64,000 nt of DNA from Sphyrna mokarran (taxonomy: Eukaryota), in NCBI GenBank assembly GCA_024679065.1, contig JAGIQG010000002.1:83948001-84012000 (forward strand). Direction: 5' to 3'. The notes under the pieces were generated by a model. That model was given only the letters and a program-made list of their open reading frames with translations. It was not told the origin of the DNA and searched no databases. The position numbers and the translations under genes were made by a program. Shown here piece by piece: positions 25,987 to 50,715 of this stretch (position 1 is its first letter; every line of letters begins with the position of its first letter).

Positions 25987-26108
25987 ATGAGATGCTGACA
26001 TTGGACTGGGGTAAACACAGTAAGAAGTCTCAGAACACCAGGTTAACATCTAATCAGTTTTTTTGATGGTAATCCCACAAGCTTTTGGAAATGCTGTTCC
26101 TCATCATC
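25987..26108 (-). mobile_element. Penelope-like terminal fragment (same family as 48045-48233)
   Basis: ttggactggggtaaacacagtaagaagtctca(g/c)aacacca is nearly identical to 48064-48103. Confidence 0.8.
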
Positions 26109-40177: not shown

Positions 40178-40425
40178 TTCATAGAACAGAATTATAGAAT
40201 CCCTGCAGAATGAGGCCATTCAGCCCATTGAGTCTGAACCAATCACAATCTTACTCAGGCCCGATCCCCATAACCCAATGTATTTACTCTGACATTAAGG
40301 GGCAATTGAGCATGACTAATCCACCTAAACGACACATTTTTGGAGTGTGGGAGGAAACCGGAGCACTCAGAGAAAATTCATGCCAGCACAGAGAGAACAT
40401 GCAAACCCACACAGACAGAGATCCC
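40178..40425 (-). mobile_element. HE1-like SINE, 3' part (5' head displaced to 41560-41603 by a LINE insertion)
   Basis: gaggccattcagcccattgag...gtgggaggaaaccggagcac...acacagacagag; the SINE resumes after the LINE as cccaggccagg..cctggcactgcgaggtggcagtgctaac. Confidence 0.85.
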
Positions 40426-41560
40426 CCCCCATGCAAGGCTTCTGGAGAAGGTGAGAGGGCATGGGATCCAAGGGGCTTTGGCCTCGTGGATCCAGAACTG
40501 GCTTGCCGGCAGAAGACAGAGAGTGGTTGTGGATGGTTCTTGTTCTGCGTGGAGGTCGGTAACCAGTGGAGTGCCCCAGAGATCTGTTCTGGGACCCCTG
40601 CTGTTTGTCATTTTCATAAATGACCTGGGTGAAGAAGGGGAGGGATGGGTTAGTAAGTTCGCCGACGATACAAAGGTCGGTGGTGTTGTGGATGGTCTAG
40701 AGGGATGCCAAAAGTTGCAGCAGGGCATAGACAGGATGCAAGACTGGGCGGAGAAGTGGCAGATGGACTTCAACGTGGATAAATGTGTAGTGATCCATTT
40801 TGGCAGGAATAATGGAATGAAGGAATACAATATAAGGGTTAGAAGTCTTAGCTGTGTTGTAGAGCAGAAGGATCTTGGGGTCCGGGTCCACAGGACTCTT
40901 AAATTGGCCTCACAGGTGGAGGAAGTGGTCAAGAAGGCGTACGGTGTACTGGCCTTCATTAATCGAGGAATAGAGTTTAGGAGTCAGAAGGTAATGATGC
41001 AGCTCTATAAGACTCTTGTCAGACCCCAGTTGGAGTATTGTGTGCAGTTCTGGTCGCCTCAATATAGGAAGGATGTAGAGGCTATTGAGAGAGTTCAGAG
41101 GAGATTTACAAGGATGCTGCCTGGATTGGGTAGCAGGCCTTATGAAGATAGGTTGAGGGAGCTGGGACTCTTCTCACTGGAGAGATGTAGGTTGAGAGGC
41201 GACCTGATAGAGGTTTATAAAATGTTGAGAGGAATAGATAGGGTGGACTCTCAGAGACTATTTCCCCGAGCTGAAATGGTCACTACGAGAGGACACAGAT
41301 TTAAGGTGCAGGGAAGCAAATACAAAGGAGATGTCAGGGGTAGGTTTTTCACTCAGAGGATGGTGAGTGAATGGAACCGACTGCCATGGGAGGTTGTTGA
41401 GGCAAACTCACTAGGGTCTTTTAAAAGACTTCTGGATGAGTATTTGGAAAAGAATATGGTAGGGGGTTATAGATAGGTCTGTAGATTGGTAGGTGTGATC
41501 GGCGCAACTCGTAGGCCGAAGGGCCTGTTTGCGCTGTATTGTTCTATGTTCTATTTTCTA
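40426..41560 (+). mobile_element. Young 5'-truncated CR1/HER1 LINE; uninterrupted reverse-transcriptase C-terminal ORF to 41476
   Basis: SGVPQRSVLGPLLFVIFINDL, KFADDTK catalytic motif, RPQLEYCVQFWSP, LRGDLIEVYK. No stop over ~350 codons. (TTCTATG)-type tail. Confidence 0.96.
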
Positions 41561-47407: not shown

Positions 47408-48044
47408 ATTCTTCAATAGAAATAAACATAATTAGTAAACTAATTTTAAAATATTTTACAACTATTTCAGAAAAGTAATGAGGACGAATTTCCAAATTTT
47501 GGCGCAGATCATGCCAATTCCGGAAGATAGAGTGCAAGGTTAAAATGAGGGGTGGAACACTGCAAGAAAAATTCTAAGTGTCCAGCTAGCTTGAAAATGG
47601 GACAGTTGCAGATCTGAGTTTTTACTTCCAATCTTATGCACATTGTGCTTGAGAAAATGGGCTAGATTTTTTCTAATTACTACAGGCAGCTCTTGGGGGT
47701 GAAACTGCAGTGGCGGGGGGGGTATTTCTGAGAGATTTTTTCTTATGTGACAACAGACACAAGGGTCTGAATTTTCAGGATAGCAAGTACTCAGCACCTG
47801 CCGACCTGAGTGTCCTCTGTTGACTCTGACAGGCCTGTTACCATTTTGTGCTCAATTAGGTGCTGACTAGCAGCAGACGGGAGTACTGTCTGCCCTTGGA
47901 CAGAAGTCCTGTCTTAATGAGTTATTGGCCAATCAGACTGTTCAGCCTTTTCAGCTACAGAAATGCAATGGCCTGAAAAGTGTTTTGAGACTAAGTCATG
48001 CGAGCGCTCTTCAGGTATATATCAGTGGCCCCAGGTGGGAGGAA

Positions 48045-48233
48045 TGATGTGGAGATGCCAGCATTGGACTGGGGTAAACACAGTAAGAAGTCTCACAACA
48101 CCAGATTAAAGTCCAACAGGTTTATTTGTAGCAAATGCCACTAACTTTCAGAACTGGCCACCTGACAAAGGAACACCAATTCCAAAAGCTAGTGGTGTTT
48201 GCTACAAATAAACCTGCTGGACTTTAACCAGGT
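48045..48233. mobile_element. Penelope-like inverted terminal element with a decayed minimal hammerhead motif (48157-48196)
   Basis: Arms ttaaagtccaacaggtttatttgtagcaaatgccacta / tagtggtgtttgctacaaataaacctgctggactttaa; core GCCAC-CTGACAA-A-GGAA..TTCC-AAAA-GCTA-GTGGT. Confidence 0.8.
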
Positions 48234-48318
48234 AGGAGAGTCAGGGATGCTCTCTGTCTTGAAGGGTTGAGAGGAGGTTATCACTGGTGTCAGGAAGTAA
48301 GTTGGAACAGGGAGGAAG

Positions 48319-48536
48319 ACTCAGTAAGAGTCTGGCAACACCAATTTTAAATCCAACCGATTTACTTGATAGTAAATCTGCTAGCTTTCGGCCTTTGTAG
48401 CCTTCGTCTGACGAAAGCTACAAAGGCCGAAAGCCAGCAGATTTATTATCAAATAAATCGGTTGGATTTAAAATTGGTGTTGCCAGACTCTTACTGAGTT
48501 TACCCCAGTTCAACGCTGACATCTCTACATCATGAA
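48319..48536. mobile_element. Young palindromic Penelope-like insertion (90-bp arms, 11-bp TSD)
   Basis: Arms 48319-48408 and 48410-48499 match at 86/90. Unpaired tail to ~48536. AGGGAGGAAGA flanks both sides (48309-48319, 48537-48547). Confidence 0.85.
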
Positions 48537-48889
48537 AGGGAGGAAGAGCCAGGGCTCCCAGCTCCCTGAAGGGAGGGCACCCAAAATCTCTAACCTACCC
48601 ATCCAAGATCAATGCTGAAAATGTTTTCTGTTTGGCAACTTGATCTAACAGGTGCCTGCCAGGCTAAAAATTGAGGCTGGGCAGGAAAGGGCCCCTACGT
48701 GGCCTCTAAAGGCCTTAATTGGGGCATGGGCAGGCTTCTCATCACAGGCCCTTTTCACCCCTCTGTTAGATTAAGCCTGGGTTGAGGCTGGTGGGATACC
48801 AGAGGGAATTCCATCCATGTGCTTTTATGTTCCCCTGGCTTAGAAGATGCTGGGGAAACATAAAGTTCTGGCCTCAGTAATTGTTTAGT

Positions 48890-50715
48890 TTCTCCAACAT
48901 TTCACCGTTTCCCTATTCTCCATCATAAACTCTCCTGCCTCAGCCTATAATAGGTCACATTTGTCCTTGCTGATTGTTTCTTTTCTATATACATAAAGAA
49001 GCTTTTATCATCTGCCTTCATGTTAATCATTAGATTCCATTCCCTTCTTTACCAATTCCTTAATCCTCCTTTGTGGGATTCTGAATTACTCCCAATCCTC
49101 AAACTTACTACTTTTTCTGACCACCCGATAAACCATTTCAATTGATATAATCCAATCTTTGTTATTTTTCTTATCCAAGGTTGATTTGCCTTTCCTATTG
49201 GATTTTTGTGACTCTGAGAATGTTGTAGACCATATAATGCTTCTTTAAATCCTAGCCACTATCTTTCTACTATCAAATCTTTTGATGTCTTTTTCCAATC
49301 TACCATAGCCAATTATTCCCTCACAACTTTATAATCTTCTTTGTTCAGGTTTAGGACCATAGTTTCAGAATGAACTATGTCACTTTTAGACTCAAGGTCA
49401 CTATTAAGGCCACATTATGGTCACTATTTCCTAATGGCTGCTTTACAGCAAAGTAATTGGTTAGTCTTTTCTCATTCGATCATAGTAAATCCCAAAATAG
49501 ATTGATTCTTAGTTGGCTCGTCAATGCATTACTCCGGGAACACATCTCACACACACTCCAGAGAGTTATCCTCCATATGACCAGTGCTGATTAGGTTTAT
49601 TCAGTCTATATATAAATTCAAATTGCTCATTATTACTGTCTTACCATGTTATATGCAACTCTAATTTCCTGATTTATACCATGCCAATGTTATCACTCCA
49701 TTCTGGAGTCTGTAAACAATTGCTACTGTTTGCTGTCCCTTGTTATTTCTTAGCTCCGCCAAACTTATCCAAATCATTCAACTTAAGATCCTTTCTTACT
49801 AACGTATTGATCTCACCTTTTATTAACAGAACTATTTCACTTCATTTATCTCTCCTCCTTTTCTTCTTAACTGAAGACTGTCCCTGACCATTTGGTTCCC
49901 AATTCTGGTCACCCTGTAACAACATCTTCATAATCGCAATTAAATTGTAACCATTTATCTTTATTTGCAACTTCAAATCCTTGCTGTAGATGTTGCATGC
50001 ATTCAGGTGGTGTGCCCTTAATTTTTTAACATTATTCTGCATTTCATTTGCTACTTTTCTACTTCATATTATCAATTTTGCTTTTGTGCAATCTGAGCTC
50101 CCTCTCAGATTCGCAACCCCCTACCAATCTAATTTAAACCCTCCCAAGTAGCACTAGCAACCCTCCCTCCCAGTGCTGCAAACGTGCAACCTGTCCATTG
50201 CACAAGTCCCACCTACCCAGACCCAGCCCTAATGCCTTAAAAATCTGATACTCTTTCTTCTACAAGAATTCTTCAGCCATATGTTCAATCAATCAATCCT
50301 ACTCCTAAGCTCACTAGCACATGACACTGGGAATAATCCTGAGATTGCTGCTTTTGATGCCTTGCTTTTTAATTTCTTTCCTAACTCCCTAAAATCTACT
50401 TTCCGGACCTCATCCCTATCTTTGTCATTGGTACTAATGTGAACCATCATTTCTAACTGTTCACTGTCCTCCAGAAGAATGTCCTACTGTTGCTCGGTGG
50501 CATCATTCATCCTGGCACCAGGGAAGCAGCACATCATCCTGGAATTAAGTCTGAAGCCTCAAAAAAAAATTAATCTGTTCCCCAAATTAACAAATACCTT
50601 ATCACTATTGCCTTTTCACTATTTTATCTCCCCTCCTCTGCAGCCCAATCATCCATGGTACCACAGACTCGACTCTTGCTTCACTCCTCTAAGGGACCAT
50701 CACCCTCACCTGTAT
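48890..50715 (-). mobile_element. Old CR1 LINE 5'/central fragment (ORF1 end and endonuclease region)
   Basis: ORF 49842-50042 (LNACNIYSKDL.LQI.INGYNLIAI.K.LLQGDQNW) resembles the CR1 endonuclease N-terminus (LNARSI.NK..EL..QI....YD..AITETWLQ.DQ.W); many stops. Confidence 0.75.

Follow-up and report, generated by a model that had tools for sequence, protein, structure and literature searches.

A palindrome from Sphyrna mokarran as a probable single-event, 5'-truncated insertion of a Penelope-like retroelement

The sections of the literature drawn on here and below describe for Penelope-like elements (PLEs) a pattern in which an inverted 5'-truncated copy is combined with a tail of 30-40 bp at one end (PMC8557442), and the tail is also covered in PMC11167929. 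In rotifers, an inverted and a direct pLTR overlap (the shared stretch is 15 bp in Pen2a_Av), and a tail, a TSD and palindromes at the junctions are present (PMC3846280). Hammerhead motifs of metazoan PLEs have also been reported in pairs on opposite strands, 100-700 bp apart (PMC4209133). The protein of a lizard PLE cuts and extends both strands in vitro, with two internal starts that bound the tail, and is predicted to be dimeric; in the part of that study used here, cleavage by PLE hammerheads in vivo was not shown by RNA-seq (PMC11167929). The way in which PLEs come to have inverted structures is called undefined in PMC8557442.

The window analysed here is a stretch of 64,000 nucleotides of Sphyrna mokarran DNA (GCA_024679065.1, contig JAGIQG010000002.1, positions 83,948,001 to 84,012,000). 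Within it, two arms at 48319-48408 and 48410-48499 face each other about a single-nucleotide centre (48409) and are identical at 86 of 90 pairs, the differences lying at 48402/48416, 48383/48435, 48372/48446 and 48365/48453. The direct repeats AGGGAGGAAGA at either end constitute an 11-bp TSD (Table 1; family coordinates are counted from hammerhead C3 = 0 = 48408). Re-measurement gave the same arms, centre, tail and TSD as a preliminary description of the locus, and the core readings on both strands were as written there. A contig from run X6, of another organism, joins 48308 straight to 48537 with one TSD copy and is thus an empty site, which fixes the ends of the insertion, and a contig from run X1 (48506-49100, 1 difference) supports the right junction; among the contigs listed for the runs, none spans the palindrome. 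The direct and inverted arms overlap by 13 bp, and the ATG of the tail (48532-48534) is the start of the element ORF in ORF-bearing copies. RNA folding of 48300-48550 gave -165.6 kcal/mol (z -24.4), a value reached by 0 of 200 shuffles. The segment 48309-48547 is very probably a dead, 5'-truncated insertion of an EN+ Penelope-like retroelement, made in what was probably one event by the enzyme of the element and not copied from another palindrome.

Table 1. Features of the palindromic insertion, its degenerate hammerhead and the neighbouring element
Feature	Position	Strand	Remarks
Older Penelope stub, related family, same anatomy, separate insertion	48044..48233	-	tail 48044-48079; decayed core at 48163
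Left TSD copy, 11 bp	48309..48319	+	last A common to arm; empty site in run X6
Short tail-less inverted arm	48319..48408	-	family ~+89 back to ribozyme core (C3 = 0)
Join TTCGTC-T-GACGAA, mini-palindrome	48403..48415	.	helix I 5' strand and core; in unjoined family sequence too
Direct tail-bearing arm, 5'-truncated 3' pLTR of Penelope-like family	48403..48536	+	-5 to +128
One-sided 37-nt tail	48500..48536	+	ATG at its end
Right TSD copy	48537..48547	+	repeat of left TSD; empty site in run X6
Degenerate minimal type-I hammerhead	48403..48442	+	alignment; descriptor from the part of PMC4209133 used
Hammerhead helix I remnant	48403-48407	+	TTCGT, 5/6 of 5'-strand bases
Hammerhead core CUGACGA	48408-48414	+	then extra A at 48415
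Hammerhead stem II	48416-48428	+	carries G10.1>A (48416)
Hammerhead GAAA	48429-48432	+	then GC, U16.1>C at 48435, H17 at 48436
Hammerhead helix I 3' strand GCAGAT	48437-48442	+	4/6 pairs still possible with 5' strand

The hammerhead of the family fits a minimal type-I ribozyme, with a 6-bp helix I, CUGAYGA, an extra A, a short stem II, GAAA, GC and UH, and it shows stem II with G10.1-C11.1, A15.1-U16.1, the palindromic 15.2-16.2 and an H17 that is not G; a type-III fold of the core was dropped, the minimal type-I reading having fitted the alignment. Across 43 segments, 93.0% of cells in the helices are paired, compared with 15-43% when the pairing is slid, and five pairs have changed on both sides, the covariation that the preliminary description had proposed looking for; a pattern fixing the core had selected 40 of the 75 distinct segments, and the invariance of the core is hence by construction. 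Helices I and II fold unaided in the segment of copy L113 and fail to do so in that of L094. In the palindrome, the plus-strand core carries the two changes given in Table 1 and the short inverted arm reads CAGACGA, in which U4>A (48409) is the defect and G10.1 and U16.1 are kept, such that neither strand holds an intact catalytic core. Given that the core is broken on both strands, and judging by known core requirements, both copies would be inactive and the palindrome would not self-cleave, which the preliminary description had also thought probable. That account attributed the loss to a missing stem I; helix I is indeed incomplete, but five of the six bases of its 5' strand survive on the plus strand, where four of its six pairs can still form. 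Modelled read-through RNA would bury both cores in a long hairpin, and a putative role as dsRNA, siRNA or cruciform is physically feasible; no RNA data set was listed with the palindrome, which counts neither for nor against expression. The locus itself is a dead repeat. A scan of the window with Rfam gave no hammerhead at E <= 1 and a miRNA model (E 0.084) as its sole match, and palindromic stubs of this type are easily mis-annotated as MITEs or miRNA hairpins.

The palindrome is the extreme 3' end, from hammerhead to tail, of an autonomous RT and GIY-YIG Penelope-like family, because longer copies run on upstream, by way of a 3' UTR, into an ORF with RT and a GIY-YIG-like C-terminus. The right arm gave 2,916 first-look candidates in the genome and the tail pattern 8,162 exact matches, and at each of the 9 other loci examined a 3' UTR and an ORF adjoin the arm without a break, at 91-95% identity. 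The ORF carries RVT_1 (E 3.2e-10 in copy L049), and its C-terminus resembles GIY-YIG clusters in a protein atlas (score 0.97, with PF01541 on 31-34% of members), the motif VVY..YIG being visible in the translations; Pfam returned no GIY-YIG match on this C-terminus, and the piece of the ORF from L049 had 0 sequence matches in the PDB. Copy L041 is almost complete: it has a piece of the 5' pLTR, an ORF whose start is the ATG immediately behind the tail, a 3' pLTR and, at its 5' end, an inverted copy. The family displays the partly tandem pLTRs, variable 5' truncation, inverted 5' copy, 30-40-nt tail and TSD of EN+ PLEs. The Penelope origin put forward in the preliminary description is upheld by this linkage to an RT ORF, found in place of the DNA transposase that had been named as the refuting outcome. 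Summed contig depth over the palindrome is ~10^6 in run X1 and 10^3-10^5 in three other runs, whereas the neighbouring element's family has high depth in every one of these runs; although depth does not measure copy number, the contrast fits a lineage-specific burst of the palindrome's family. X1 contigs set on the family 3' end are, among the matches listed, mostly stem-II length variants.

The anatomy of sister copies was surveyed in 90 of the 8,162 copies, picked by tail pattern alone, all from one contig (C1) and with related subfamilies included; the arm ends were taken from BLAST alignments to a single natural copy and may be several bases off. All 90 direct arms finish at +120 to +132. 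An inverted arm is present in 45, starting at +68 to +99 and in 39 of them at +85 to +99, and the 5' ends of both arms range from +84 to past -1400. Joins vary along a continuum: both lie 3' of -25, giving short hairpins, in 30 of the 90 copies; they fall within 14 nt of each other in 23 of the 45 two-armed copies; and in 11 of the 45 the short arm extends past the tail arm on the 5' side by 15 nt or more, with the reverse in another 11. In L165 the arms overlap by only ~7 nt. A TSD score of at least 8 was obtained at 61 of 80 loci but in only 11 of the 80 controls with shifted positions (9 of 89 loci had been dropped as duplicates or as too near an edge). Four copies (L091, L099, L115, L118) end at ~+87 to +90 without tail or inverted arm and have a TSD of 6-8 bp or none, unlike tail-ended copies, with 11-14 bp. 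The arms of one insertion come from different stem-II subfamilies in L104 and L119, which suggests two RNA templates or one mixed tandem template. In eight copies (L002, L003, L014, L016, L024, L029, L265, L282) the direct arm begins at -79 to -84, an extra join hot spot in the 3' UTR. The hammerhead-centred join itself has 71 exact matches, compared with 3,118 to the unjoined sequence. Of the 70 join copies retrieved, 35 carry the intact core on the short arm and 20 carry it on the tail arm; 15 are unclassified, the present palindrome being one of them, with its core on the tail arm by inspection. A TSD was found in 44 of the 70, all different, with a length range of 10-19 nt and 35 of the 44 at 11-14 bp.

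The mirror arm would probably arise by priming from both nicks. The enzyme would nick the two target strands ~11-14 nt apart, and each 3' end would prime reverse transcription inside the element RNA, one at ~+124, the end of the tail, and the other at ~+89; both cDNAs would halt near the 5' edge of the ribozyme and anneal via its own mini-palindrome, TTCGYC-T-GACGAA, whereupon repair would keep the centre of either cDNA and fill in the TSD. The one-sided tail would then be the gap between the two start sites, and the four substitutions in the arms would have been acquired after insertion. The family shows two fixed starts ~35 nt apart, free 5' ends and a staggered TSD, with microhomology at the 48403-48415 join, which is likely the annealing site of the two arms; the priming and annealing themselves are inferred. 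They are favoured by the short arms that outrun the tail arm on the 5' side and the equal number that fall short of it, by the scant overlap in L165, by centres that derive from either arm, and by the lizard protein, which acts on both strands and has two starts. At 48485-48501 (+), the short-arm start (+85 to +97) lies on the 3' side of a small, weakly predicted hairpin (z -1.47), reminiscent of the stem-loop start site of the lizard Penelope element. Searches of a literature set with few subscription papers turned up no such account of PLE inversions by double priming.

A different origin of the arm, judged unlikely, is that one cDNA or antisense template doubles back at the mini-palindrome already in the sequence and serves as primer for its own copying, a route suggested for rotifer Penelopes; self-priming has been put forward for palindromes at inverted junctions (PMC3846280). 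The join stretch is self-complementary, as the fold of 48402-48450 shows, the two arms agree in subfamily in 36 of 38 palindromes, and the closeness of the joins in half of the two-armed copies is also as this would have it. However, there are three points against it: first, folding of a tail-primed cDNA predicts that the centre is always on the tail arm, and it is on the short arm in 35 of the 55 classified copies. Second, it cannot yield short arms that reach further 5' (the 11 of 45 above; L165), and because the L165 arms overlap so little the short arm is no copy of the tail arm. Third, by itself it leaves the fixed short-arm start near +89 unexplained. Later recombination between arms could flip hairpin centres and mimic the two centre types, in copies other than L165, which weakens the argument for double priming from centre orientation.

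A more tentative reading is that the joins are a fossil record of the ends of element RNA and of germ-line double priming. Arm ends cluster in two intervals, one at -12 to -2, where the ribozyme has its 5' edge, and one at +29 to +39, immediately 3' of the point where cleavage is predicted (+28/+29). The tests are divided: within -65 to +65, 13 of 51 direct ends lie in the first interval (scan P 0.012), and for inverted ends the second takes 11 of 36 (P 0.005), but the other two clustering tests gave P 0.097 and 0.93. The pile-up at -12 to -2 is possibly an RNA start; a fixed start near -7 was not seen in ORF-bearing copies, of whose 29 measurable 5' ends (33 examined) only 2 lie near the ribozyme, at -6 or -2. 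The peaks may alternatively be caused by native mini-palindromes, which occur at both, or by variable sites at +28 to +33 that stop alignments. Were the joins such a record, PLE hammerheads would cut in vivo and inverted PLE insertions would come from two cDNAs primed at both nicks.

The preliminary description regarded the palindrome as the best candidate for an under-described system of tiny non-autonomous palindromic retroelements mobilised by Penelope enzymes, a system understood here as a 217-bp unit transcribed and re-inserted whole. That 71 sites share the same join, mostly with similar ends and TSD lengths, is in keeping with this reading, as are a few small all-palindrome clusters in the arm tree (one starred, 5 rows) and the existence of non-autonomous PLE derivatives such as retrozymes (bioRxiv 10.64898/2026.07.22.740005) and the non-autonomous members of Chlamys (PMC8557442). 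Nevertheless, the reading is largely refuted and its remaining probability is very small. The palindromes form no clade: in a tree of 48 palindromic and 25 ordinary arms over 87 columns (rows with at least ~80 aligned bases; 41 of the 69 internal branches are open), palindromic and ordinary arms required 23 label changes, compared with 21.1 when shuffled (469 of 500 shuffles as low), a single palindrome clade was rejected (p-AU 2.75e-40), and divergence is alike between palindromes (10.7%), between palindromes and ordinary copies (10.8%) and between ordinary copies (10.6%). Each of the five stem-II subfamilies shows both centre types, for which ~ten masters would be needed, the joins form a continuum, and the stubs are without RNA downstream of the tail, a requirement of the lizard enzyme (PMC11167929). 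Given the five subfamilies, the two centre orientations and the lack of a clade, hammerhead-centred palindromes are recurrent by-products of the autonomous family and no self-propagating mini-element; the same join recurs because the unjoined sequence is already a mini-palindrome. Limited re-copying of palindromes is possible on the arm sequences. With the anatomy already published for EN+ PLEs, the claim of an under-described system is not sustained, and a literature search for palindromic non-autonomous Penelope elements listed no title on point.

Two further explanations have next to no probability. Perfect-looking hairpins are a known type of artefact and no listed contig crosses the palindrome, but an assembly or library fold-back, the possibility that the preliminary description had wished to exclude, is opposed by the four arm mismatches, by the agreement of the TSD with the empty site in another organism and by the sister palindromes, of which just 2 of 45 have identical arms (median divergence 5.4%). 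A MITE of a DNA transposon would have long inverted repeats and a TSD, as here, and is refuted by repeats that are not terminal, given the one-sided tail, by the variable TSD length and by a sequence that is the 3' end of an RT-encoding element.

The neighbouring element at 48044-48233 is a two-armed stub with its core on the tail-less arm, and alignment confirms the earlier view that it belongs to a distinct subfamily with compensatory changes in helix I and stem II. Its junctions are present in the runs of other organisms too, and it is the older of the two, since the X6 empty-site contig carries part of it. By eye, an 11-bp TSD with one mismatch possibly flanks it, and in each of the four runs the loose ends of contigs of its family show peaks at 48044-45 and at 48079-80, a spacing that is again ~35 nt. 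The preliminary description found it worthy of remark that the palindrome had inserted beside this copy, ~85 bp away. No special cause is needed: in 44,439 bp of sequence flanking 30 loci the neighbour's family was found 4 times, and the palindrome's family has thousands of copies, which makes such closeness ordinary. Targeted insertion was rejected, the neighbour's family lying within 400 bp downstream at 0 of 30 loci. Copies L019, L081, L128 and L171 lie in or by older PLE copies. Elsewhere in the window, the neighbour's family is represented once more by a decayed Penelope stub, the third, at 25989-26101 (79% alike); a 501-aa stop-to-stop frame with C2H2 zinc fingers at 12186-13688 (-), in a stretch of GC 0.587 ~35 kb from the palindrome, is likely an exon of a transcription-factor gene; and a 386-aa frame at 40316-41473 (+) with RVT_1 (E 1.1e-10) is likely a retroelement fragment. 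Among the 40 of 131 window ORFs scanned with a host gene in mind, none near the palindrome matched Pfam.

In summary, the palindrome is real and ordinary in kind, and the kind is already published as PLE anatomy. The family is of modest interest because the mechanism of PLE inversion is described as undefined: thousands of fairly young stubs, with fixed starts, variable joins and two centre types, make double priming testable from genomes together with an in vitro PLE system.

In L1 twin priming, both ends of the target prime cDNA and an inversion joined by microhomology results. With double priming, the palindrome would be alike in both respects; the two parts in L1 cover different stretches of the RNA, however, whereas the arms here cover the same stretch from two fixed starts ~35 nt apart. 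As far as the cited sections go, the closest systems are EN+ PLEs such as Pen2a_Av (PMC3846280, PMC8557442), which share with the palindrome an inverted truncated copy beside a direct one, a one-sided tail, a short TSD and a junction palindrome. The overlap is 15 bp in Pen2a_Av and 13 bp here; the palindrome differs in having no ORF between the repeats and both arms cut to the ribozyme, and its family has a TSD of mostly 11-14 bp where the rotifer examples have 8-10 bp (PMC3846280). Poseidon PAc of Anolis carolinensis resembles the family in its RT with C-terminal GIY-YIG, its pLTR hammerhead and two internal starts bounding the tail (PMC11167929). The PAc start is 111-118 nt inside its ORF, the opening of which is at stem II, and corresponds by arithmetic to ~+119 to +126 from C3, near the +124 of the family, although the ORF of the family opens at +124, after the tail, and that of PAc in stem II (PMC11167929). 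Non-LTR retrozymes are, like the palindrome, short, non-coding, PLE-related and of type-I hammerhead, but they are head-to-tail tandem arrays with intact ribozymes, whereas the palindrome is a single head-to-head insertion with dead cores (bioRxiv 10.64898/2026.07.22.740005); as a single head-to-head unit without a complete hammerhead, it was rejected as a retrozyme. The metazoan PLE hammerheads of PMC4209133 share with the family CUGANGA, an extra base before stem II, G10.1-C11.1, GAAA, a palindromic 15.2-16.2 (GC), UH and a short helix I, and the ribozyme of the family may already be among the supplementary vertebrate motif alignments of that study; the family is set apart by its 6-bp helix I and 3-4-bp stem II, and the palindrome by cores changed at conserved positions.
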